Below, one piece after another: positions 7,807 to 29,589 of a DNA stretch of 64,000 bases. How positions within the stretch are numbered: the stretch's first letter is position 1; each line of letters starts with the position of its first letter. The position numbers and the translations under genes are program-made. The notes beneath the pieces are model-generated. The model made no database searches. It was not told the DNA's origin and saw nothing but the letters and a program-made list of their open reading frames with translations. Where the stretch lies: the NCBI GenBank assembly GCA_964570175.1, contig CAZMXG010000016.1, forward strand, positions 9,746 through 73,745. Reading direction: 5' to 3'. This stretch comes from an uncultured Heliomicrobium sp. GTDB taxonomy: Bacteria; Acidobacteriota; Blastocatellia; RBC074.

Positions 7807-10800
7807 TTAGAAGTTGATTCTTGCCATAATCTGGCCGCTGCGCTCTCCAGTGCGTGGGCCAGTCGGGATGCCAAAGTTGTTTACGGGAGTAAACACGCCT
7901 TGCGCATTCAACGTGCCGGTGGCCGGACGGAATGGAGTTCCGCCAAATCCGAAGTTCGTGCGATTGAAGACGTTGAAGAATTCCGCACGGATTTCAAAGT
8001 TTACGGTTTCAGAAATTCGGGTCCGTTTGATAAAGCCCATGCTATCGCTATACAGGTTCGGATTACGAAGCTCGTTCAAGTATGTCGGCGAATTGCCAAG
8101 TTCGAACGCCCCCGGAATCGTGTAGAAATCGTTGTTCAACCAGTTGGTCGAAACTGAACGATCAAACACACCACCGGCCAAACCTTTGCGCGGGTCAAGG
8201 TCCTGGCGGTCAATACCGCTTTGAATCGCTTTTCCAGGAATGATGCTGACCCGTTTGCGGCCATAGGCAAATCCCCATTGCGGGTAAGTGAATGTCTGCG
8301 CGTTGAGCAGAATCAATGCGCCCGATGAATAAGCGCCGACAAACGAAACCGTCCATCCGCCAATGACGCGGTCCATATATTTGTTGCTATTCAGGAATTT
8401 CTTCCCTTTTCCAAATGGCAGATCATAGGTGGCCACGACATTCATAATCCACGGATAATCCGTGTACTGATAGCTCTTTTCCAATTCCAGAATGCGATCT
8501 TTGGAATTCAGAGAGAGCGATTTGTCGGTCTTCGGGTTGCGGTTGTTGGAATCGCCACCGGTTTGTGAGCCGGAAGCGTTGGTCAGGGATTTCGACCGGG
8601 TGTAGTTCACTTCGGTGAAGAAATCGCCAAAACGACGATCCAGTTTCAACTGCAAAGAGTCGTACCAGGAACTGCCGACCGGATTGTATTCGTCACCAAT
8701 CGGGCCATTGATATGCGGATACGGACGCAGCGCGCGAGCCAGCGTTGCGCCGGAAGTTGTGCTGGATTTGCCCCAATCGGCGATGAAGTTTGCGTAAGGA
8801 GCTTTGTAACCCGCTGCGACAACTGCCGGATCATCAATGTATTTGAACAGTAGATCGCCCAGCGAGTAATACTTCGCGTCCAGCAGGTTCAGCGAGAAGT
8901 GATTCGCCGAAAGCCGTGTGCCGCGATTGCCAATATAGGCAGCTTCGGCCACGAACTTCCAGGGCAATTCGCGCTGGAATCCGATGCTCCAGTTTTGGAA
9001 ACGCGGCGCGGTGCCGGATTTCGGATTGATGTAGTAAATGTCATCAGCCGCATTGCCTGCTGAAGGATTGACCACTCCGGGCGGAATGAAGTTGGGTGTC
9101 GGCTGAAAACCATTGTCCCATTGCAAACCACCAACGCCATCCGCAACGGTGGCAAAACCTGTCGCACAACGCAGACAGAATCCTCCCATCAAACCGTTAC
9201 CAGCGGCGTAATACATTCCGTATCCAACGCGCATGACGGTTTTCTGATCAATTGACCATGCAAAACCTGCACGCGGGCCGTACGAAGAGTAATCAATCTT
9301 TCCGAAACGATCCTGGCCGTTGCATCCCTGGCAATCGCCCAGAAATGCCAACGCGCCTTTCAAGCCGGAACGTGGATCGGTAATGTTCGGATCGAAGGAC
9401 GTAAATGAACCGATTGGATCGGTTTGACGCGGCGTCGGGATTTCATAACGGAATCCCAGGTTGATTGTCAGATTCGGGCGAATGCGCCAATCGGTTTGGG
9501 CGTAAGCCGCGTTGTAACCGAACTTGGCCGAAATGCCCTGGCCATTGAATGTGCGCGAAGAAGTGTTGACCAACCCAAGAAGGAAGCTGGCAAAGGGGTC
9601 GCCGCCGCCGCCGTTTAACGCCGTCTGGTTGGCAGCAAAGTTGAATACGCCCTGAACGCCTGCATCATCGAATGCGCCGGAAGGCAGTTTCTCGCCGGTT
9701 GTGCGCATCCAGCGTTTATCAACACCGAATTTCCAATTGAACTTGCCTTTGACCCAGCTCACATCAGCAGCGAAGTGGTCTGTGTTATTGAATTGCGAAC
9801 CATTGGTCTTGGTTCCGTTGGTATCAGCCAGCGCTTGATAAACCCCGGCGAAATTCACGACCGGAAAGGCGTCCGTGCCGGATTCTTGCACACCTTTCAA
9901 TCCCAACCGTTGCGGCCAGCCCTGGCCGACGCTCTGGTTTTCAAAATACGCACGCAACTTGGTGATTCCATACGACACGTGCAAGTTCATTGTTGGCGTG
10001 ATGATGTAGTCATAATTAAAGCGCGCAAAAATCGGCTTATTCGGGCTGAAGGCGTTACCGCCAGCCCCCAGCAACGGCGAAGGCAACGGGCCATTCACGA
10101 CACTGCCGATGTACTGCTTGCTGAAATAACCGCTGACCAGATGGCGCTGCGTGATGTTGTGGTTGATCTTCAGACTCCACGAATCCTGTTTGTTTACGCT
10201 GCTGGTTGTTTGCAGATAGTTCTGGACAATACCGCTGTTGGTTGGCAACGGAATCAACGGCAGGATGTTTTTGGAAACGGAACTGAAACGATTGGCCGGA
10301 ATGATATTCCCGGCAAAGGGCTGTCTGGTGACAGGATCGTAAATGATTCTGCTGGGCAGATATTCTGAAAAATCGCCTTGGCGCATTTTCACCGTCGGCA
10401 GCGTAATAAAGCTGGACGTTGCACTGGCGCGTCGAAAGTTATCAGTGGTGAAATGAAAGAAGGAACGAGTCTTGTCTTCGTTATAACCGCCGATTGGGCC
10501 GAAAATCTTTTTCGGCAGATAGATCGGGCCGCCGATGCTGCCACCGTAGTTGTTGCCGTGGAACGGCGTCTTGCGAAACACAGGGTTGGCCGCTGTCGAA
10601 CTGGCTTTGCCCGCCCACGAAGCAGCATTCAGCGCGCTGCTGGTGTGAAAATCGAAACCGCTTCCGTGAAATTGGCTGCCGCCGGATTTGGTAACAAAAG
10701 ATTCAATACCCCCACCGGTTCGTCCGTATTCAGCCGCAAAAGTATTGGTGATCAAACGAAATTCGCCGATCGAATCGAAAGCGGGCAATCCGTTGAAAGC

Positions 10801-19525: not shown

Positions 19526-19604
19526 CCTTTCTTTTTTGCCAGCCACGGGAAAATTGATTAAGCTGCCAGCGGCTTTCAAATTCCAAGTTACAACAGGCCT
19601 TACG

Positions 19605-21137
19605 ATGAATTCACCGGTCACTCCAGTCATTCCCAAAGACGCGGCGGCGATGATTTTGCTGCGCGACCCTGACGACCCAAAAGTGTTTTGGGTCAAACGC
19701 GCGCGAACGCTGAAGTTTATGGGGCATTTCCACGCCTTCCCTGGTGGCCAACGAGACTCCGGCGACGCAGAAGTGCCGATTGAAAACGTTCCCAGTTCTG
19801 ATGATGAAATGACCGGCGTCATGCGCGTTGCTGCCATTCGGGAAATTTTTGAAGAAACCGGCGTGCTGATCGCGTGCGGAGTGGAAAAGCTTTCGGCGGA
19901 GCGTCGCGCCCAGTTGCGCGCGGAATTAGCCGCTGACCAAGTCAGTTTCAAGGATTTGCTGGCAAACGAGGGGTTGACGCTGGACGCCAGCCTGCTCCAG
20001 GAAGTTCCGCGCTGGGTGACGCCCGTTCCTTCCCCGCGCCGGTTCGATGCCCGGTTTTTCTCTGCCTGGCTGCCCGAAGGCCAGGAAACGGAAATCATTC
20101 CCGGCGAATTGGAAGAAGGCGAATGGCTGCGTCCGGTTGAAGCGCTGCAAAAATGGATTGACGGTGACTGTTTGATCGTTACTCCGATCACCTCGGCAAT
20201 GCATGCCTTGGCTGAAGGCATTGATGGATTCGCCGAACGAATGCTGAACGTGCCCCAATCCGAACGCGACCACTGGGAAAGCCGAGTTGAATTCCGAAAA
20301 GGATTTTTCCTGTGTTCGTTGCGAACGCCAACGATTCCGCCCGCCACGCATACGAATTGTTACATTGTCGGTGGCGATGAGCTGGTGGTGATTGATCCAG
20401 GTTCGCCTTATCCGGAAGAACAGGCCAAGCTGGACGCCGTCATCGAACGCTTTCTGGCGCACGGCCGCCGAGTCCGCGAAATCATCATCACGCATCTTCA
20501 CCCGGACCACATCGGCGGAGTCGAGCATCTGGTGAAAAAGTTCAATCTGCCGGTGGCGACGCACCGCCTGACTGCCGAGGCAATTCAGGGCGAAGTTCAT
20601 GTGGATCGTTTGATCGAAGACGACGAAGTCATTGAACTGGGCGAACAAGCTTCGGGGTTAACCTGGCGATTGCGCGCAATGTGGACGCCCGGTCACGCGC
20701 GTGGCCATTTGAGCTTTTATGAAGAACGCACCGGCACGTTGATCACCGGGGATTGTGTTGTAGGGTTTGGCACTGTCGTCATCGCTCCGCCCGAAGGAAA
20801 TATGAAAGACTATCTGGATTCGCTGCAGCGGTATCTGGCATTGCCGAAACTGACGGCGTTGATGCCCGGTCACGGACCTGTACTGGCCGACACGCGCGGC
20901 AAAATCGAAGAGTACATTGCTCACCGGCTGGCGCGCGAAGAAATGATCGTCAACGCAATGGCCGCCGGCGCGCGAACTTCGGCGCAAATTGTCCAGTCTG
21001 TTTACACGGACACGCCTGCGGCGATGCATCAATTGGCCGAACTTTCCGTCCGCGCGCATCTGGAAAAATTGGTTGCCGATGGACGTGTCGTCGAAAGCGA
21101 TAACGAATTTGCGCTACATCAAAACGGAATAAAGTAG
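19605..21137 (+). CDS. NUDIX hydrolase / MBL-fold metallo-hydrolase fusion protein
   Basis: The N-terminal carries a NUDIX box (GGQRDSGD...REIFEETGV). The C-terminal carries MBL motifs THLHPDHIGG and ..TPGHARGH. Confidence 0.75.
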   Translation: MNSPVTPVIPKDAAAMILLRDPDDPKVFWVKRARTLKFMGHFHAFPGGQRDSGDAEVPIENVPSSDDEMTGVMRVAAIREIFEETGVLIACGVEKLSAERRAQLRAELAADQVSFKDLLANEGLTLDASLLQEVPRWVTPVPSPRRFDARFFSAWLPEGQETEIIPGELEEGEWLRPVEALQKWIDGDCLIVTPITSAMHALAEGIDGFAERMLNVPQSERDHWESRVEFRKGFFLCSLRTPTIPPATHTNCYIVGGDELVVIDPGSPYPEEQAKLDAVIERFLAHGRRVREIIITHLHPDHIGGVEHLVKKFNLPVATHRLTAEAIQGEVHVDRLIEDDEVIELGEQASGLTWRLRAMWTPGHARGHLSFYEERTGTLITGDCVVGFGTVVIAPPEGNMKDYLDSLQRYLALPKLTALMPGHGPVLADTRGKIEEYIAHRLAREEMIVNAMAAGARTSAQIVQSVYTDTPAAMHQLAELSVRAHLEKLVADGRVVESDNEFALHQNGIK

Positions 21138-21147
21138 ACAGAATTTA

Positions 21148-21217
21148 CAGGATTCAGCAGGATTGCCGATCATCATCTTCGATTGCCTCTTCATCCTGAA
21201 AAATCCTGCCCATCCTG
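21148..21217. promoter_or_regulatory. Helically phased AATCCTG/CAGGATT heptad array upstream of the ClpB-like gene (candidate operator)
   Basis: CAGGATT occurs at 21148 and 21158. ATCCTG occurs at 21193, 21203 and 21212. The spacing is about 10 bp and the whole array forms an imperfect palindrome. Confidence 0.3.
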
Positions 21218-21225
21218 TCTAAATT

Positions 21226-24200
21226 TTGCTTTCTCGATTTAGCAGTTTGAATGTTTACAACTTCAGCCCGAACCAAATGATTACTTTTTTGATTTCACTT
21301 GTGACGCTGCTGGCAGGCATTGCACTTGGGTTTGTCGTTCGCCAGCGCTGGGAAAACCGAAAGGCCGATGGATCCAATTTGCCCGAACAGGCTGGCGAAT
21401 TAGGCCCGCTGTATAAACTCGCCGAATCGCTGCAAACCTATTTTGACCAAAGCGCCCATCCGAAAGATTTGCTGACGCATTCGGAATTCGAACGCGGCGT
21501 AAAAATGTTGCTGGCGGATAAATATTCAACCGGCGATTTATTGAATTACGTTGCCGGAACCAATGGCGTCATTAGCTGCATCGCTCTGGAAGCGTTGAAT
21601 CGTCGCGACAAAGTCGAACTGGACATCTACGATCCCATCATCAACCTGCTGTCCAATTTCGGGTACTGGCAGTTGTATTTTGCATTTCGCGCACTTGCCA
21701 AACATTCAGACCGTCCCCTTGCGGCCCCAGTGATGGCGAGGGTCAATTTGGGCTGGCGACCTCCGAACGGAACGCAGATTCTGCGCGAATTCATCGAATC
21801 GCGCGTTGCTGCCGGTGAAAAACCTGAATTTGGAACCGATCTGAATCTGCTGACAGAAGAAAGCCAATTGGAAAATCTGGAATCGGCACTGCGGGAAATG
21901 GGCGAACCGCTCACGGGCAGGCTGCTGGAACAGGCGCAGCAATCCAGACTATCACAGTTTCTAAAGGGCATCGGCAGTATTTGGAACCGTGAGGAAGAGC
22001 AAAACCGCGAATTGCTGGTTGAGCACGATTACCTGGTCGAGCTGGTCGGCGCGGTGGAAAACTCACTGAAAAAACAAATTCCACGATCAGTATTGCTGGT
22101 CGGCGAATCCGGCGTCGGCAAAACGGCTGTGGTTCGCGCGCTCGCCCGAAAATTGCAAACTGAAGGATGGGTCATTTTCGAAGCCAGCGCCAACGAATTG
22201 ATGGCCGGGCAAAGTTACATTGGCGAACTGGAAGGCCGCATTCAAACCATGCTGCGGCAATTGAGCAACCAGCGGAAAACCATCTGGTTTGTCCCGGCGT
22301 TTCAGGATTTGCTGTGGGCAGGCCAACATAAATATCAACAGGCAGGCATCCTGGACCAAATTTTTTCGCGCGTCGAAAGCGGCGAAATTATGTTGATCGG
22401 CGAAATCCAGCCTGCAGCATACGAACGTTTGCTGCAGGCCAAACCACGCGTCCGAACTGCACTGGAAACCATTCGAGTCAATGCGCTGAACGACGAAAAG
22501 ACGATGGCGTTGGCGCGGCAATGGGTTGAACATTACAGTCCAAACGATGCGGGCACGCTGATTTCGAAACAAACGCTGGCGGAAGCCTTCCAATTATCGA
22601 AACAGTTTCTGGGCGAAAAGGCTTCACCTGGAAATTTGCTGCAATTCCTGGTGTTGACCCGCCAACGTCTGGCGGCGCTTTCGCCTGAAGGCGATTTCAA
22701 AATCACGCTCGACGAATTGCTGGTGACCCTGTCTCAGTTGACCGGGTTACCGCTGAGCATCCTGGACGACCGGCACGGATTGGACTTGGACGCGTTGCGC
22801 GAATACTTCCAGTCGCGCGTGCTTGGCCAGCCCGAAGCGATTGACTGCCTGGTGGAACGCGTAGCGATGATCAAAGCGGGCGTCACCGACCCGAAACGTC
22901 CGCAAGGCGTTTTCCTGTTCGCCGGCCCGACCGGAACCGGTAAAACCGAAATCGCCAAAACGTTGGCGCAATTTCTGTTCGGTTCAGAAGAGCGAATGAT
23001 CCGCATTGACATGAGCGAACTGCAAACCGGCAGCGGACATGGTCGCATTATCGGCGAAATCGAAGAGATCGCTGGGCAAACCGCGCTGGTCAACCAGATT
23101 CGCCGCCAGCCGTTTTCGGTCATCTTGCTGGATGAGTTTGAAAAAGCCGACGCCAGCGTTTGGGACTTGTTTTTGCAGGTTTTCGACGACGGCCGCCTGA
23201 CCGATCGCCGGGGCTATACAGCGGATTTTCGCCATTCGATCATCATTCTGACTTCCAACCTGGGGGCAGCAATTCCGCACGGGATGAGCGTCGGATTCAA
23301 TTCGGATTCGGCGGGTTTCAGCCTGGCGATGGTCGAACGAACGATTGGGAAAACCTTCCGCCGCGAATTCGTCAACCGTCTGGATCGCGTGGTTGTGTTC
23401 CGTCCACTGAATCGCGGGGTGATGCGCGATTTGCTGAAGAAAGAATTGCGCGACGTCGTTCACCGCCGCGGCTTGAGAAACCGCGACTGGGCCGTCGAAT
23501 GGGACGAATCGGCAATTGAGTTTTTGTTGGACAAAGGCTTCACGCCCGACCTGGGTGCGCGACCGTTGAAGCGTGCCATTGAACGGTATCTGCTGTCTCC
23601 ATTGGCGATGAGCATCGTCAATCACCAGCTTCCCGACGGGGATCAGTTTCTGTTCGTTCGCAGCGACGGCAAAGAAATCCAGGTTGAGTTCATTGATCCG
23701 AATCCGCCAGAACAAACTTTGCCTGAAATTGCCGCTGGAACGGAAACTGAGTGCAATCTGGAAGAATTGGCGTTGGACGCCACCGGAACTCCAATCGAAG
23801 TCGAATTTCTAAAAGACGCTTTCGAACGACTGGTTGACGAAGTTGAATCCGAAGACTGGCAGGCAAAAAAGAATGCCGCGCTGATGCAAACGTCTGCCAA
23901 AGGATTCTGGAATTCGCCCTCGCGTTTTGGCGTGCTGGGATTGGTCGAATACATGGATCGCATCGAAGTCGGTTTGCGGTCCGGCGATTCCCTGCTGCGG
24001 CGCATTCTGGGTTCCGAACCGGAAAAACGAAAATTCTTTTCGGCGGATTTGATCAAACGATTAGCGCAGCAAATTTATCTCCTGGAAATTGCCTGCGACG
24101 ATCTGGCTGACAACCGCCCGCGCGATGCTTTCTTGCAAATTGAAAGTGGACGCGACCCGGGGCTTGAACCAACGGAAAACGACGAGTTTGCCCGTCGGCT

Positions 24201-24621
24201 GGTCAGTATGTACGAGCAATGGGCGGCCAAACGAAAAATGAAGCTGGAAGTTATTGAGCAAACACCAGGCAACGACCGCCAGCCGATGCGCTGGCTGGCT
24301 ACTGTGTCAGGCTATGGCGCATTTTCATTGCTGCTGCCCGAAGCCGGTTTCCACATCCTGGAAACGCCGCGCAAGGAAGGAAATTTTCACCGCTTCAAAG
24401 CCCGCGTCCGCGTCACCGCCACACCAGACGAGCCAACCGAAGCGCCGGACAAATTGGCAAAACTGGCGCGGGAATCGTTTGAGCGAATCGGCGACACCAA
24501 ACTGGTCATCGTTCGACGTTACCGGGAACAACCTTCGCCGTTGGTGCGCGATAGCATCCGCAACTGGCGAACCGGCAAGCTTGAGCGAGTGTTTGGCGGT
24601 GATTTTGATCTGATTCGGTAG
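21226..24621 (+). CDS. Membrane-anchored ClpA/ClpB-family double-AAA+ ATPase with C-terminal release-factor (PCRF)-like domain
   Basis: There is an N-terminal transmembrane helix ([20 protein letters not shown]). The D1 P-loop is [14 protein letters not shown] with a degenerate Walker B ([10 protein letters not shown]). D2 is ClpB-like ([23 protein letters not shown]...MIRIDMSE...[11 protein letters not shown]...GRLTD...IIILTSNLG). The C-terminal segment AFLQIESG...[20 protein letters not shown]...[22 protein letters not shown] aligns with the RF1 PCRF domain (AFLEVRAG...[20 protein letters not shown]...[23 protein letters not shown]). No GGQ motif is present. The start is either TTG 21226 or ATG 21277. 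Confidence 0.7.
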   Translation: [1131 protein letters not shown]

Positions 24622-24691: not shown

Positions 24692-25210
24692 CTATTTTAC
24701 CTTCACATCAACCGAAGCTGATGTGTTTTCCCATTCCATCTTTAGCACTCCGCCCGTCAGCGAGATCGTGAATTGTTCGACGGTCGAAGCTGTTTTTCCG
24801 ACTTTCATATCCGTTCGCCCAAGATCATCCGCTTCTTTGTAGCTGAAAGCGCCCCATTGTTTATCGGTCTTGTTGACGATCAGCTTCCAACCGGCTTCCG
24901 TCGGCAAGGTGAACAGCGAATAGCTGCCTTTCGGAACTGACAAACTGCCAATCATCAAATCGGCTTCCGTGGTCAGAATCGTCGCTTCATCCGCGCCAGT
25001 GCGCCAAACCTGGCCGTAAGGAACCAAGCTGCCTCCGACGGCTTTGCGCCCTTTTAGATAAGGCCGACCGTAAGTGATGGTAATCTTTTTGCCGCCGATG
25101 GTTGCTTCCACGGTTTCGTGCGGGCTGACTCGTTGGCGCTGCCAAGCCACGGCTGCCACGATCAAGACACACAAAATTGCCAGAACTGCGAATGCACGTT
25201 TCAGGTTCAT
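24692..25210 (-). CDS. DUF2911 domain protein (secreted)
   Basis: A signal peptide is present, and the DUF2911-like core is GRPYLKGRKAVGGSLVPYGQVWRTGADEAT. Confidence 0.65.
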   Translation of the reverse strand: MNLKRAFAVLAILCVLIVAAVAWQRQRVSPHETVEATIGGKKITITYGRPYLKGRKAVGGSLVPYGQVWRTGADEATILTTEADLMIGSLSVPKGSYSLFTLPTEAGWKLIVNKTDKQWGAFSYKEADDLGRTDMKVGKTASTVEQFTISLTGGVLKMEWENTSASVDVKVK

Positions 25211-25249: not shown

Positions 25250-25831
25250 CTACGAAATTTGTATCACATCTGCAAGCGATTTTCGCCTGGCCACAATTTC
25301 CGCCATCGCTCGCCGATTGGCGGCGGGCTTGCCTTCAAAATCATGCAGCAACTCCCAACCGTAAAACTGCGCTCGCAGCTCTCCGGGCTGAAGCAGAAAC
25401 GCCGGATTCATCGGCTTCACTGCCGGATCATCATCCACCATTGCAATTACTGCTAACGCACAGCCGCCGAGTTTTACACCGGCGCTGATTGCCGGAAACA
25501 GGTTGCGCTGCAGGTAACAGCAATTGACGATCAAATCGTAATTATTGGGTTCGATGACGAATTCGCCGGTTTCCAGATCAGCGACGCGAGCATCAACCTG
25601 AATGCCAAGTTCTTTCGCCCGTTCAAGCAGGGTTTTGATGGCGACGTTGGAAGAATCAACGGCGGTGACTTGCCATCCGCGCTCAGCCAAATAAAGCGCA
25701 TGCCGACCAACACCACAGGCCACATCGAGCGCTCGGCCAGGCTTGAGCTTCGCGGCGAATTCCACGACCAGCGGATGCGGTTTGTCGTTCAGATGTTCAC
25801 CTTGTTTGTAGCGCTCGTCCCATTTCGTCAT
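25250..25831 (-). CDS. Class I SAM-dependent methyltransferase (TehB/TPMT-like)
   Basis: Motif I is ALDVACGVGRHALYLAERGWQVTAVD. The start is probably ATG 25831 with a GGGAGA Shine-Dalgarno. The ORF is open from 25867. Confidence 0.65.
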   Translation of the reverse strand: MTKWDERYKQGEHLNDKPHPLVVEFAAKLKPGRALDVACGVGRHALYLAERGWQVTAVDSSNVAIKTLLERAKELGIQVDARVADLETGEFVIEPNNYDLIVNCCYLQRNLFPAISAGVKLGGCALAVIAMVDDDPAVKPMNPAFLLQPGELRAQFYGWELLHDFEGKPAANRRAMAEIVARRKSLADVIQIS

Positions 25832-25975
25832 TCGCTTATTCTCCCAATCCCACACAACCGCAGCCATTTACAGCAATAGCGCCAGCGGCATCTTTTTCAA
25901 GCAGCAACTGGCGCTATTGAATTTTGATTGCGGATTATCATCGTGCGACCGGCGAGTTTCCGCAACTACAGACGT

Positions 25976-27322
25976 TTATGCTTCAGGTTCCGAACCTACA
26001 GGACAGCAGCGATATTCCTGCGATTTATCCAGCAACTCGATCTTCCGTTTCAGCAGTTCGTTCTCCAGACGTTTTCGTTCCAGATCAAGTTCGATCTCTT
26101 TCTGCAACGAAGGCTCGCAGATGTCGCAGTCGTCAAAACAGCCTTTGACGATGACGCCTGCCGTCGGCAAAGAGCTTTTTTGTTCGAAGGAGAAACTGGT
26201 TTTGGTCTCGTCGGTGACTTTGCCACCCACGCGATCAATCAGTTTGGCGGCGACCAGTCGCTCGTCAACCTGCTGCAAGGCTTTTTGCCGGACGGCTGCG
26301 GTCAAGGGCTCAGGAACAAAACCCGCCGCCGCAAGACCGGGCTGGAACGCCAGATTGGCCTGCAAATTCGTGTTTGCCGTCAACACTGTGTCGGCACGCT
26401 GATTCGCCAGGACACTGTTGCGTCCGATGGCTTCGACTTCCAGACGATCTTTGGCGGTCGCCAACACAGCGGTTGGAATCGCGCTGATGCCACCGCGCGA
26501 AGCAAACGAATTGTTGGTGACTTTGGTATCGGCTGCCGGATCAATCACTCTGCGTTCAATGGATTCGATGGTGAATTTCACCGTTTGCAGTTTGTTGATC
26601 TGATAGAAGAAAAACGTCACTGCGTGACAGCGATTCGGATTGGCGAATTCGCGCGAAGCGGATTCGAAATGATCCTGCGATTCGGTTTCGGTGTGCGTGC
26701 GGCTTTGGACTTCGCCGACCGAAACTGAGTTCGAAGCGCGAACCGCGATTTCCGAACGCCGATGTGATGATTGCGCATGCGAAGAAAGCTCGCGCAAAAA
26801 ATCGCTGCTGGATTCGGCGCTGTACGATCCGCTGACGTCAACCGACGGCCCCGCGAAAAAGCTTTCGATTGCGCCGCTGGTTTCGGCGTGTCCCTGTGCG
26901 GAGCCTTTTGATTTGTTGGAAGCCCGCACCGAATCGCGTGAAGAAACATCGGACATAAAATCGCTCATGCTGGCCATGTACGAGCGTTCTTCCGAAGTCT
27001 GTTCGTTGCGATAACTGACCTTCGACGCGCTATCAAACGAAAAGCGCGTGCGTCTGTCTGTGGTGAACAGCTTGACCTTTTCGCCCGGCAACAGGGTGGT
27101 CGTGTAAACCACATCACCGAGCATCAACGGCCCAGGACATCGTTCCAGGCGAGCGTGAATAATCACTTCGACCTGAACATTCTGCCTGCGGTCGCCCGCT
27201 GGGACGGTTGTGTTGTGAATCTGGCGATAATGAAAATCCAGAACATCGCATACCCGATCCGGTTCGAGCGGTGGGCAGCAAGGGATCATTTGTTGACTGT
27301 CATGTTTATCATTGTCATGCAT
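25976..27322 (-). CDS. Hypothetical protein, Ser-rich low-complexity centre and C-terminal coiled coil with CC..C cluster
   Basis: A 448-aa ORF with an AAAGGAG Shine-Dalgarno 9 nt upstream of the ATG. I recognise no family. The opposite-strand ORF is Arg/Phe-rich, which is typical of antisense junk. Confidence 0.5.
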   Translation of the reverse strand: MHDNDKHDSQQMIPCCPPLEPDRVCDVLDFHYRQIHNTTVPAGDRRQNVQVEVIIHARLERCPGPLMLGDVVYTTTLLPGEKVKLFTTDRRTRFSFDSASKVSYRNEQTSEERSYMASMSDFMSDVSSRDSVRASNKSKGSAQGHAETSGAIESFFAGPSVDVSGSYSAESSSDFLRELSSHAQSSHRRSEIAVRASNSVSVGEVQSRTHTETESQDHFESASREFANPNRCHAVTFFFYQINKLQTVKFTIESIERRVIDPAADTKVTNNSFASRGGISAIPTAVLATAKDRLEVEAIGRNSVLANQRADTVLTANTNLQANLAFQPGLAAAGFVPEPLTAAVRQKALQQVDERLVAAKLIDRVGGKVTDETKTSFSFEQKSSLPTAGVIVKGCFDDCDICEPSLQKEIELDLERKRLENELLKRKIELLDKSQEYRCCPVGSEPEA

Positions 27323-27441: not shown

Positions 27442-29589
27442 TCAGGACTGAGGCGCAAGCACGAATGCCCGAACGGCCGAATCGTCATACCCGCTCAATC
27501 GCTCCCAGCCGTTGGTGGCCATGGCCGCGACGTACAGGTTTTCTGAAAAACCCGCCACCGGACAATCCGGGCTGCGCAGATTGTTGACTGAATCAATGAT
27601 GGAAAACGGCGCGCCGGTGTTTGCATTGCCACTAGCGCTGGCAACGACAGGGCTAACGCCGCGCACGACTGCGAAGCTGTAGGTTGCAAATCCATTTGGA
27701 TGCGAAGCTGTGTACGACATTGTCACCGTGTCGCTGTCCAGGTAATTCAACACACCGCAATCGTCGGCGGCCACACTACCATTCAGCAGCGGCGCGGCGA
27801 TGCTAGCGTCGCAAACGTTGTTATCAATGTGCAGCGTCATGATGAAGCTGTTCAGCCCATCGCCGTCATCGTCCTGTACCAAACCCAGCGCGGCAGCATC
27901 TTCGGTAAAGATGGTTCCGGACAAATCGGTCGAAGTCGGCACCCGATATTTGATGCCTTTGGCCACGACGTTAACCAGCGCGCCAGCGCTGTCGAACAGA
28001 TCAACTTTGAGTTGATACTTGCCAGCTTCGTCTGGCGGCGCAAAGGTGTTGGTTGGGAATTTGGCGTTGGTCAGGTCTTCACGCAGGTCTGGGAAACTAT
28101 ATTGGCCAACCGGAGCCAGCGCCGGAGGAATCTCAAACAGATTAGCCGTAGCACCAGCGACCTGTGGCCCCAGTGGCAAGACTTCCAGAATCAGATCGCC
28201 ACCGACTTCGTGCGTGTAATGACGATGGCATTCATCCGTCAGCGGAGCGAAAGCTCCCGATGTGCCTTTTCGCCACGAAACCCGGTAAAACTTCACGTCC
28301 AGGTCGTCGCGCAGGCTGTTGTCGAATTCGATTCTGAGGCGCAGCAATCCACCGAACGGCGCTTCCCCATCGGTCAAACCGATATTTGTAGCGTTGGTCG
28401 TTCCCTGCAAAGTTTGGCCCGTGCCGCGAATCCGGCTGAGCGGGTGATTGCCGATGGCCATTACCAGCACCCAATTGTTCGGAGCAATAATCGGCGGACA
28501 TGGCGGACAGGTTCTGGCCAGCGCATGCCTGGTAATCAGCGTGACCTCCGTTCCGCAGACGTAATTCCAGTGCGTGTAACAAGCAACCGGTTTGGGTTCG
28601 TAAATTGTGACGTCGAAAAATCCGAACAACCGCTGCTTGGCTTTGAAGTACAAATCCGGCGTGTCGTGATTCAGACAACCTCGGAAAAAGAATGTCTGGA
28701 AATGTCCGCATTCATCTGTTGTCGCTGTTGCTACCAACTGCTTCGTGACCAGAGCCGGAAACAGCCGGCACAAAATGGGTCGAACCAATTCTGCGTGATT
28801 GATCAGCATATTGCGCAAAACCGGCGTGCTGGCGGTTCGCGCCTGAAACTGCAAATCTGTCGCCCCGGAAAGCGTAATCATTTGCGCAGAGGCCGCCGGT
28901 TCGGCTGTTGCTGCATGGGCTGTCAAACTGGCAGCGCGCGCGCTCGGCGACAATCTGAAATCAGGAGCGGGATCAGGTCCTGGAACTGGAATCGGGCCGT
29001 CAAATGGTGGGAATGGCCCCGGCAGTTCAATTGGCGGATCCGGCAGCGGCGGCGGGTTGAGGATAAAGTCGCGTATGCGTTCAATTTCCAGATCGGGAAG
29101 TTTGGGAATCAGAATGAACAGCGGATCAACTTCGTAAACTTCGACGGTGGCGTTGCAAACTGGCAGATCAAGTGGGATTCCGCCGCTGGTGACTCGTTTG
29201 AGCAACGTGCCGCGCACAAAGCACAAGCCCAGCAGCCAGCATTTCCAAACACCGGGAATGATCTGAAAATCCAACGATGGCGACAGGTTTTGCGCGTCAA
29301 TCCGTACGGATTTTTCCGCTGCGCCACGCCGCAACAAATCGTCCACGGTAAGCTCTTTCTCTTCGACATCGGGGCCGACCAGTATGCGCACGCGGCCTCC
29401 ACCGTCAGCGACGCGAAGGCTCAAAGTCGCCGCTCCTTTTTCATCCAGCGATTTCCGCGCCAGCAATCGCCCGCCTGCGGCAAAGGCATATGCTGTTCCG
29501 CGAGGAACTTTTTCGGCTCCTTTTGATTCAAGCAAATTGGCAAAGACATTCAATCGAACGTCGCGTCCTTTGGATTCCTTCTGTGGCAT
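27442..29589 (-). CDS. Hypothetical protein with Pro-rich linker (PPPLPDPPIELPGPFPPFDGPIPVPGPDP) and Cys-rich C-terminal region
   Basis: A 715-aa ORF with an AAGGAG Shine-Dalgarno 6 nt upstream. I recognise no family. There is no N-terminal signal peptide. Confidence 0.5.
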   Translation of the reverse strand: MPQKESKGRDVRLNVFANLLESKGAEKVPRGTAYAFAAGGRLLARKSLDEKGAATLSLRVADGGGRVRILVGPDVEEKELTVDDLLRRGAAEKSVRIDAQNLSPSLDFQIIPGVWKCWLLGLCFVRGTLLKRVTSGGIPLDLPVCNATVEVYEVDPLFILIPKLPDLEIERIRDFILNPPPLPDPPIELPGPFPPFDGPIPVPGPDPAPDFRLSPSARAASLTAHAATAEPAASAQMITLSGATDLQFQARTASTPVLRNMLINHAELVRPILCRLFPALVTKQLVATATTDECGHFQTFFFRGCLNHDTPDLYFKAKQRLFGFFDVTIYEPKPVACYTHWNYVCGTEVTLITRHALARTCPPCPPIIAPNNWVLVMAIGNHPLSRIRGTGQTLQGTTNATNIGLTDGEAPFGGLLRLRIEFDNSLRDDLDVKFYRVSWRKGTSGAFAPLTDECHRHYTHEVGGDLILEVLPLGPQVAGATANLFEIPPALAPVGQYSFPDLREDLTNAKFPTNTFAPPDEAGKYQLKVDLFDSAGALVNVVAKGIKYRVPTSTDLSGTIFTEDAAALGLVQDDDGDGLNSFIMTLHIDNNVCDASIAAPLLNGSVAADDCGVLNYLDSDTVTMSYTASHPNGFATYSFAVVRGVSPVVASASGNANTGAPFSIIDSVNNLRSPDCPVAGFSENLYVAAMATNGWERLSGYDDSAVRAFVLAPQS

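Follow-up and report, generated by a model that had tools for sequence, protein, structure and literature searches.

A membrane-anchored Clp/Hsp100-type ATPase with a release-factor-derived C-terminal module in Acidobacteriota and other bacterial phyla

We analysed a stretch of 64,000 nucleotides (nt), here called the window, from an uncultured bacterium that is listed as Heliomicrobium sp. and placed by GTDB in the Acidobacteriota (Blastocatellia; RBC074). It covers positions 9,746 to 73,745 of the forward strand of contig CAZMXG010000016.1 (GenBank assembly GCA_964570175.1). The subject of this study is one open reading frame (ORF) of the window, at 21226–24621 on the + strand, which is listed with a TTG start, 1131 amino acids (aa) and the stop codon TAG at 24619–24621. 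The encoded protein, which we call Clp-RF, joins a double ATPase of the Clp/Hsp100 type to a module derived from bacterial release factors (RFs). From the N-terminus onwards it consists of a transmembrane (TM) anchor, a HEAT-like domain, a degenerate first AAA+ module (D1), an intact second AAA+ module (D2), a tether of ~27 aa and the RF-derived module of ~280 aa. Positions are those of the window, residues are numbered from the listed TTG, and all features within the gene lie on the + strand.

The release-factor-derived module

The homology of the C-terminal region to RFs is established along four independent routes, which include sequence, profile and structure comparisons. Pfam placed the PCRF domain (PF03462) at aa 962–1044 with a score of 33.9 bits (E 3.6e-8), where the gathering cutoff is 24. 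This unbiased search reproduces the similarity that a first-pass annotation of the DNA had read from the sequence, and the RF segments aligned in that annotation agree with the hidden Markov model alignments. A phmmer search of the last 321 aa against the PDB sequences returned release factors only, with E 3e-7 for RF2 and 2e-5 for RF1. When a profile of 59 family sequences was compared with RF2 of B. subtilis, the match (E 6e-17) came in two pieces, RF2 4–220 (domains 1 and 2) and RF2 308–352 (domain 4), and the intervening residues 221–307 (domain 3, with the GGQ motif) stood opposite only ~18 profile positions. When 88 diverse members were aligned globally with E. coli RF1/RF2 by hhalign, the probability was 98.8% (E 6e-16, 253 columns) and RF1 ~217–296 was left gapped. 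The AlphaFold2 (AF2) model of the module has a predicted local distance difference test score (pLDDT) of 93. It shows the RF fold, i.e., the domain 2/4 superdomain together with domain 1, and in structure comparison RF1/RF2 alone scored high, followed by PrfH, which again bears out the proposed relationship.

The module is preceded by a tether (23704–23781) whose length ranges from 22 to 78 aa in the family (median 27). Its variable sequence (19% pairwise identity) and low pLDDT are in line with the expectation for a flexibly presented adaptor. Domain 1 (23782–24105) is helical and aligns with domain 1 of RF2 and RF1. Domain 2, the PCRF core (24106–24423), retains the motifs MY..WA..R.M and E.G.H..E.P. 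The RF structural core is kept at M995, Y996, W999 and R1003 and at E1039, G1041 and H1043, and the former decoding loop carries the family-specific invariant residues E1046, P1048 and R1056. A short helix and linker (24424–24507) take the place of domain 3, the peptidyl-hydrolase domain. The absence of GGQ noted in the first-pass annotation thus extends to the whole of domain 3, which is replaced by 16–42 aa in the family (median 32) versus ~90 aa in RF2. A library scan found the PCRF, AAA_2 and ClpB_D2-small domains, as had been anticipated from the sequence, but Pfam gave no match to the RF-1/GGQ domain (PF00472). GGQ tripeptides do occur in 3 of 87 members, at chance expectation and outside the position of domain 3.

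Conservation within the protein peaks in domain 4 (24508–24618). Its family pattern reads V-R-R-Y-R-E-x-P-S-P-L-V-R-D-x-x-R-x-W-R-T-G...G-x-F-D-L, and 41% of its positions are at least 90% conserved, which is at least level with the D2 core. Mean pairwise identity is 66% in domain 4, 62% in D2, 36–37% in RF domains 1/2 and 21% in the replacement of domain 3. The high identity of domain 4, together with invariant residues in what was once the decoding strand and loop, argues for strong selection on the module. With a median isoelectric point (pI) of 8.3, its domain 2/4 part is mildly basic. Judged from its sequence, the module derives from RF2, is catalytically dead and codon-blind, and is maintained by selection rather than decaying.

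The two ATPase modules and the N-terminus

For the ATPase part, we aligned the family with solved Clp/Hsp100 proteins and directly with ClpA and ClpB of E. coli, and counted residues in a locus-derived set (68 members) and a set of diverse members (88). Pfam recognised an AAA module at aa 289–366, AAA_2 at aa 558–721 (E 8e-44) and ClpB_D2-small at aa 728–807.

D1 (22063–22860) is degenerate. As the first-pass annotation had described, its P-loop is intact and its Walker B motif is lost. The Walker A sequence GESGVGKT (22102–22125) is invariant in the family, and in the former Walker B, IWFVPA (22282–22299), P357-A358 stand opposite ClpA D285-E286. Proline replaces the Walker B aspartate in 68/68 and 71/88 members, so that the family pattern is P-[DNA] instead of DE. 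Sensor-1 has disappeared as well, and the Arg-finger pair R339-R340 of ClpA corresponds to T411-A412. The pore loop of D1 (22204–22239) is retained, with Tyr331 aligned to ClpA Y259 and an aromatic residue conserved in 67/68 and 77/88 members. D1 probably binds nucleotide and does not hydrolyse it.

D2 had been described as canonical and ClpB-like. This description fits the catalytic residues, all of which are intact in the large domain (AAA_2; 22861–23400). Walker A (GPTGTGKT, 22924–22947) and Walker B (VILLDE, 23119–23136), as located in the family alignment, are invariant across the family, and so are sensor-1, the Arg finger and sensor-2, the last of which lies in GARPLKR of the small domain (ClpB_D2-small; 23401–23703). 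D2 is the only ATPase in the protein that is predicted to be competent. In other respects the description does not hold. The pore-loop-1 region of D2 (23053–23085) is 3 aa shorter than in ClpA and ClpB and has no aromatic residue; the pore-loop tyrosine of ClpA, Y540, falls inside the deletion. The family loop is variable and rich in Gly, Ser and acidic residues, and an aromatic residue anywhere in it was found in only 9/88 members, never at the aligned position. The M-domain is absent: the alignment jumps from ClpB ~392 to ~520, while ClpA 209–728 aligns contiguously. Furthermore, V689-G690-F691 (23290–23298) provides a [LIV]-G-F tripeptide of the ClpA/ClpC type (G in 86/88, F in 87/88 members), which aligns with the ClpP-docking loop IGL617–619 of ClpA, whereas E. 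coli ClpB is gapped at the same position. By alignment, the layout is closer to ClpA/ClpC than to ClpB, with the predicted dead ring keeping its gripping loop and the live ring lacking one. The earlier suggestion of a Clp unfoldase is weakened by the missing pore-loop aromatic in D2, the one ring predicted to hydrolyse ATP.

Translation probably starts at the ATG at 21277–21279 (M18 of the listed ORF) rather than at TTG 21226, because this ATG is kept in 14 of 16 close relatives while the region 5' of it either diverges or still belongs to the end of the preceding gene. The product would then have 1114 aa. Directly 5' of the start (21235–21276), close relatives (L004–L016) share the leader motif GCAGTTTGA...ACTTCAGCC...(A)ATG, and in some of them the upstream gene ends at the TGA inside it.

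The N-terminal TM helix of the first-pass annotation lies at aa 19–38 (21280–21339) and has the character of a signal anchor, with TM-like segments in 61/67 locus-derived and 67/86 diverse relatives. Basic residues come after it, which would place the rest of the protein in the cytoplasm. An all-helical N-domain (21403–22035) then stands where other Clp proteins have the canonical Clp_N domain. It is poorly conserved (23% pairwise identity), and the Pfam scan found neither Clp_N nor any other domain in it. In a structure model built on 8 sequences (pLDDT 77), it folds as a HEAT/ARM-like solenoid; homologue searches with the N-domain recovered only 4–5 partial proteins.

Distribution, known relatives and gene neighbourhood

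The fusion is widespread. A scan of the GTDB species representatives found relatives of Clp-RF in 356 species of several phyla, which supplies the phylogenetic map that had been suggested for it. Among 1.84 billion cluster representatives, phmmer returned at least 245 matches (50%-identity clusters) at E ≤1e-30; the complete ones are 1090–1290 aa long and have the RF-like module at the C-terminus without exception. Carriers include Acidobacteriota (Blastocatellia, Pyrinomonadaceae), Calditrichota (Calditrichia), Gemmatimonadota, Thermodesulfobacteriota, Planctomycetota, Verrucomicrobiota and others, among them Krumholzibacteriia and Moduliflexus. The window itself is 98% identical to one Blastocatellia metagenome-assembled genome (MAG) in the gene region. 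At nearly all loci the entire architecture is encoded in one ORF of ~1115–1330 aa, with 47–55% identity across phyla, and most of 83 loci, as well as 87 diverse representatives with 35–48% identity, have a single intact ORF of ~1100–1300 aa. The fusion is a conserved, selected architecture and no accident.

The sampled family members all come from MAGs, where they carry generic names such as 'AAA family ATPase', 'ClpC' or 'PCRF domain-containing protein'. We found no description of the fusion in the searchable literature, in agreement with the first-pass annotation, which knew of none. The review by Burroughs & Aravind, the fullest survey of RF evolution and one seeded on the hydrolase domain, does not mention it either.

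Candidates for stand-alone RF-like proteins were rejected: the short matches are contig-end truncations or genes frameshifted in long-read assemblies. For instance, P0070 and P0037 lie on long contigs and are pieces of full-length genes broken by frameshifts, and the same holds for P0026 and P0087. In several long-read MAGs (L001/L082, L003, L052, L084, L085) the family gene is split by frameshifts, and the copy in L001/L082 lacks residues ~337–566, which is most of D1. The fragments of the split copies are co-linear and in order, and lie on error-prone long-read contigs. Such split or deleted copies may reflect errors of assembly or be genuine pseudogenes or variants.

How does Clp-RF relate to known proteins? 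With RF1 and RF2 it has the core motifs RMY..WA..R, E.G.H, R.Y...P..V.D and G.(L/F)D in common, and RF2 is closer than RF1. However, Clp-RF lacks domain 3 with its GGQ, the decoding residues and a conserved switch loop, and its module is a C-terminal appendage on an ATPase of 850 aa instead of a free factor. The NCBIfam models for prfB (TIGR00020; 29.6 bits versus a cutoff of 370) and prfA (NF001859; 23.2 versus 400) reflect this distance. PrfH and ArfB keep the GGQ domain and drop others, whereas Clp-RF keeps domains 1, 2 and 4 and has lost GGQ; the PrfH model (TIGR03072) reached only E 0.22.

On the ATPase side, Clp-RF resembles ClpA and ClpC in having two tandem AAA+ modules without an M-domain, identical D2 catalytic residues and [LIV]-G-F at the position of IGL617–619. 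It differs from them in the TM and HEAT-like segments that stand instead of Clp_N, the dead D1, the deleted or degenerate GYVG pore loop of D2 and the added RF-like module of ~280 aa (NCBIfam ClpA equivalog, 292 bits versus a cutoff of 993). ClpB and Hsp104 give the best sequence matches for D2 and its small domain (Thermus thermophilus ClpB, E 9e-81). Yet Clp-RF has no M-domain, no D2 pore-loop tyrosine and an inactive D1, is membrane-anchored, and bears the ClpP-type LGF loop that ClpB lacks (NCBIfam ClpB TIGR03346, 313 bits versus 1232). AAA+ proteins of the FtsH/Msp1 type would be similar in that an N-terminal anchor holds a hexameric ring at the cytoplasmic face of the membrane. They belong to the classic single-ring AAA+ clade, in contrast to the Clp/Hsp100 double ring of Clp-RF, and have no RF-like module; conversely, Pfam and NCBIfam scans found no M41 or other peptidase domain in Clp-RF. 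On these comparisons of sequence, Clp-RF falls outside RF1/RF2, ClpB and ClpA/ClpC, yet it is homologous to all three. It is an uncharacterised Clp/Hsp100 subfamily with an unprecedented RF-derived appendage.

To examine the neighbourhood, all ORFs of the window were compared by tblastn with the 83 loci, 718 flanking ORFs were clustered de novo, and Pfam scans were run on the neighbours in the window and on the lineage-specific ones. None of these approaches revealed a neighbour shared across lineages at the 83 loci; synteny is lineage-local only. Directly upstream in the window lies a gene of 533 aa (19536–21137, + strand) that encodes a fusion of Nudix, metallo-beta-lactamase (MBL) and BLACT winged-helix domains. 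This gene and the Clp-RF gene are syntenic at 16 closely related Blastocatellia loci. The stop codon of the upstream gene lies only ~30 nt before the Clp-RF ATG in several relatives, which suggests that the two genes are co-transcribed in Blastocatellia.

Downstream, a DUF2911 protein and a TehB-like SAM methyltransferase are encoded convergently (24692–25210 and 25250–25867, both on the − strand); they adjoin the Clp-RF gene only in close Blastocatellia relatives. Two further ORFs on the − strand, 25976–27322 (448 aa) and 27442–29589 (715 aa), have no Pfam match and adjoin the gene only in L004 among the fetched loci. Pyrinomonadaceae have other lineage-specific neighbours, including aconitase and a major facilitator superfamily (MFS) transporter. 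Peptidases also occur there, one of the M48 (HtpX-like) family at 19 loci and one of the S46 family at 12 (for example, L030:13336–14799, − strand, and L029:12162–14270, + strand). These peptidase neighbours may represent a proteostasis neighbourhood, or plain synteny. In one Acidobacteriota MAG, and at no other locus, a TIR_2-domain protein (L003:9525–10637, − strand) lies directly downstream of the family gene. A role as a defence system was considered and rejected: PADLOC matched the generic AAA_2 core only (DolB, PDC-M37B), and gave nothing for the RF-like module or the N-domain.

The intergenic region upstream of the gene contains repeats (21148–21217, + strand), namely two copies of CAGGATT (at 21148 and 21158) and three of ATCCTG (at 21193, 21203 and 21212), which are mutually inverted. 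The first-pass annotation had described a phased heptad, operator-like array. The repeats are real, but their spacing is 9–10 nt rather than heptad-phased, and they are not a feature of the family: outside the window, three copies of ATCCTG were found only in L006 and L010. They are probably lineage-local and outside the conserved unit. The region folds as an RNA hairpin (−26.3 kcal/mol, z −4.3), but a known RNA or a terminator was rejected as an explanation, as Rfam gave nothing beyond noise and no terminator-like site was found. A weak sigma70-like match, TTTACA-18-GATCAT (21144–21173), has both CAGGATT copies between its -35 and -10 hexamers. Such a layout may represent an operator or a small element that was inserted.

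Possible functions and their implications

We tentatively favour the reading that Clp-RF is a membrane-tethered, ribosome-directed quality-control or remodelling ATPase, while granting it somewhat less than even chances. Clp-RF would assemble into a hexamer at the cytoplasmic side of the membrane. Its tethered RF-derived module would act as a codon-independent adaptor that targets the ribosome at the A site and GTPase centre, without releasing peptides itself, and ATP hydrolysis by D2 would remodel or extract a ribosome-associated or nascent substrate. D1 would serve as a nucleotide-stabilised ring, so that grip would come mainly from its Tyr loops moving with the whole protomer. The LGF loops would dock ClpP, and the substrate would then be degraded; we regard ClpP docking, which is predicted from the aligned tripeptide, as evenly balanced.

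For the module taken by itself, targeting of the ribosome is a plausible role that we rate a little below an even chance. It is proposed because the RF fold is kept and domain 4 is the most strongly selected part. To our knowledge, the RF fold binds the ribosomal A site and the GTPase-associated centre in every characterised relative, and we infer ribosome docking of the module from this homology. The loss of the decoding and GGQ motifs need not preclude A-site binding, since Balon, a homologue of the archaeo-eukaryotic release factor aeRF1 that lacks NIKS and GGQ, binds to the A site in an mRNA-independent manner (PMC10901736). Similarly, Vms1 and Cdc48 offer the example of an RF-family protein working alongside an AAA+ ATPase (PMC6514570). 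Both likenesses are functional analogies only: Balon and Vms1 belong to the archaeo-eukaryotic RF fold, which is unrelated, and have no covalent link to the ATPase, and Vms1 is catalytically active.

Several observations weigh against a ribosome-directed ATPase that works with ClpP. Every RF motif with a known ribosomal or mRNA role, GGQ included, is lost or unconserved in the module. The SPF/PxT motif is absent and its loop shortened, the GGxE tip of helix alpha5 is variable and carries an insertion, the positions of the His-Thr pair (after GRR) vary, and the switch loop is not conserved. No translation- or rescue-related neighbour was found in any lineage among the 83 loci. The geometry is uncertain, with the anchor lying on the side of D1 and the RF-like module on that of D2. 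D2, the sole active ring, has no canonical pore loop, which makes it doubtful that substrates are threaded processively into ClpP. Furthermore, ClpB of Thermus, which is not a ClpP binder, has a G-aromatic sequence (KGW) at the position of the LGF loop. A tblastn search with E. coli ClpP found no clpP within ±10 kb of the gene in the window or at the 83 loci; clpP is normally unlinked, and its missing linkage is therefore uninformative.

The loss of all characterised RF motifs and the lack of translation-linked neighbours would fit an alternative that we take seriously while thinking it, on balance, doubtful. The RF module might have been exapted for non-ribosomal substrate or adaptor binding, oligomerisation or autoregulation, and Clp-RF might be a membrane-protein quality-control ATPase, like extractases of the FtsH/Msp1 type, that hands its substrates to ClpP. 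The TM anchor would set the entry face of D1 at the membrane, the HEAT-like N-domain would offer a generic protein-binding scaffold, and the conserved LGF loop and the lineage-specific M48 peptidase of Pyrinomonadaceae would find a place in such a scheme. However, conservation is highest in domain 4 and in the strand and loop that once served decoding, and their invariant Arg and Trp residues and basic pI fit contact with RNA; the degenerate pore loop of D2 speaks equally against an extractase that threads its substrates. That same loop, variable and without an aromatic, agrees with a factor that does not thread polypeptides. In that case the dead RF module would plug the A site of idle or stalled ribosomes at the membrane, as a ClpP-independent tether or hibernation-type factor, and hydrolysis by D2 would only load or release ribosomes. 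The hydrolysis-dead D1, the precedent of Balon as a motif-less RF homologue that acts as a hibernation factor in the A site, and the occurrence of the family in slow-growing soil and sediment phyla point in this direction. Yet the invariant [LIV]-G-F and the conserved pore-loop tyrosine of D1 would be left unexplained, and no hibernation-factor genes are linked; we consider such a tether rather improbable.

Two other explanations conflict with the conservation of the family and with its sequence. One might suppose that the RF similarity is the functionless, decaying remnant of an accidental prfB fusion, or an artefact of assembly or annotation, given that GGQ and the decoding motifs are lost and that the gene is split or internally deleted in several long-read MAG assemblies. 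The conservation data effectively refute this and make it very improbable: the ORF is intact in most of the loci and in the diverse representatives, domain 4 is the best-conserved segment of the protein, the module is modelled with high confidence, and the split cases consist of ordered, co-linear fragments in error-prone contigs. Homology to RF2 and RF1 could also be taken to mean that Clp-RF actively hydrolyses peptidyl-tRNA in release or rescue, in the way that RF2, PrfH or ArfB do. This is refuted by the sequence, to the point that we give it almost no weight, as PF00472 is missing, domain 3 is replaced in all members, and the few stray GGQ tripeptides lie outside the domain-3 segment.

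The ribosome-directed reading can be taken further, to a more specific form that is possible but that we consider unlikely as a whole. Clp-RF may be the first bacterial AAA+ machine that is hard-wired to the ribosome, in which a hexamer anchored in the membrane senses a vacant or aberrant A site through a codon-blind, hydrolase-less RF2 module, and in which hydrolysis by D2, probably with ClpP, pulls out and destroys the nascent chain or a bound factor, or else tethers and releases ribosomes at the membrane. If true, this would be a bacterial counterpart of ribosome-associated quality control of the Cdc48–Vms1 type, made of bacterial parts.

The RF paralogues that we know of (ArfB, PrfH, ICT1 and others) have retained the hydrolase domain with GGQ and shed the parts that serve decoding. 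The Clp-RF family is the reverse, a decoding superdomain joined to an ATP motor. Should the module prove not to bind ribosomes, the RF domain 1/2/4 fold would here serve a non-ribosomal purpose for the first time. If the module does bind them, the family would show that the RF scaffold can be converted into a codon-independent sensor of the A site, and would provide a natural Clp/Hsp100 protein in which the gripping ring (D1) is separate from the hydrolysing ring (D2). Major soil and sediment phyla would then possess an ATP-driven pathway of ribosome quality control or remodelling at the membrane, hidden so far by standard annotation as 'ClpC' or 'AAA family ATPase'.

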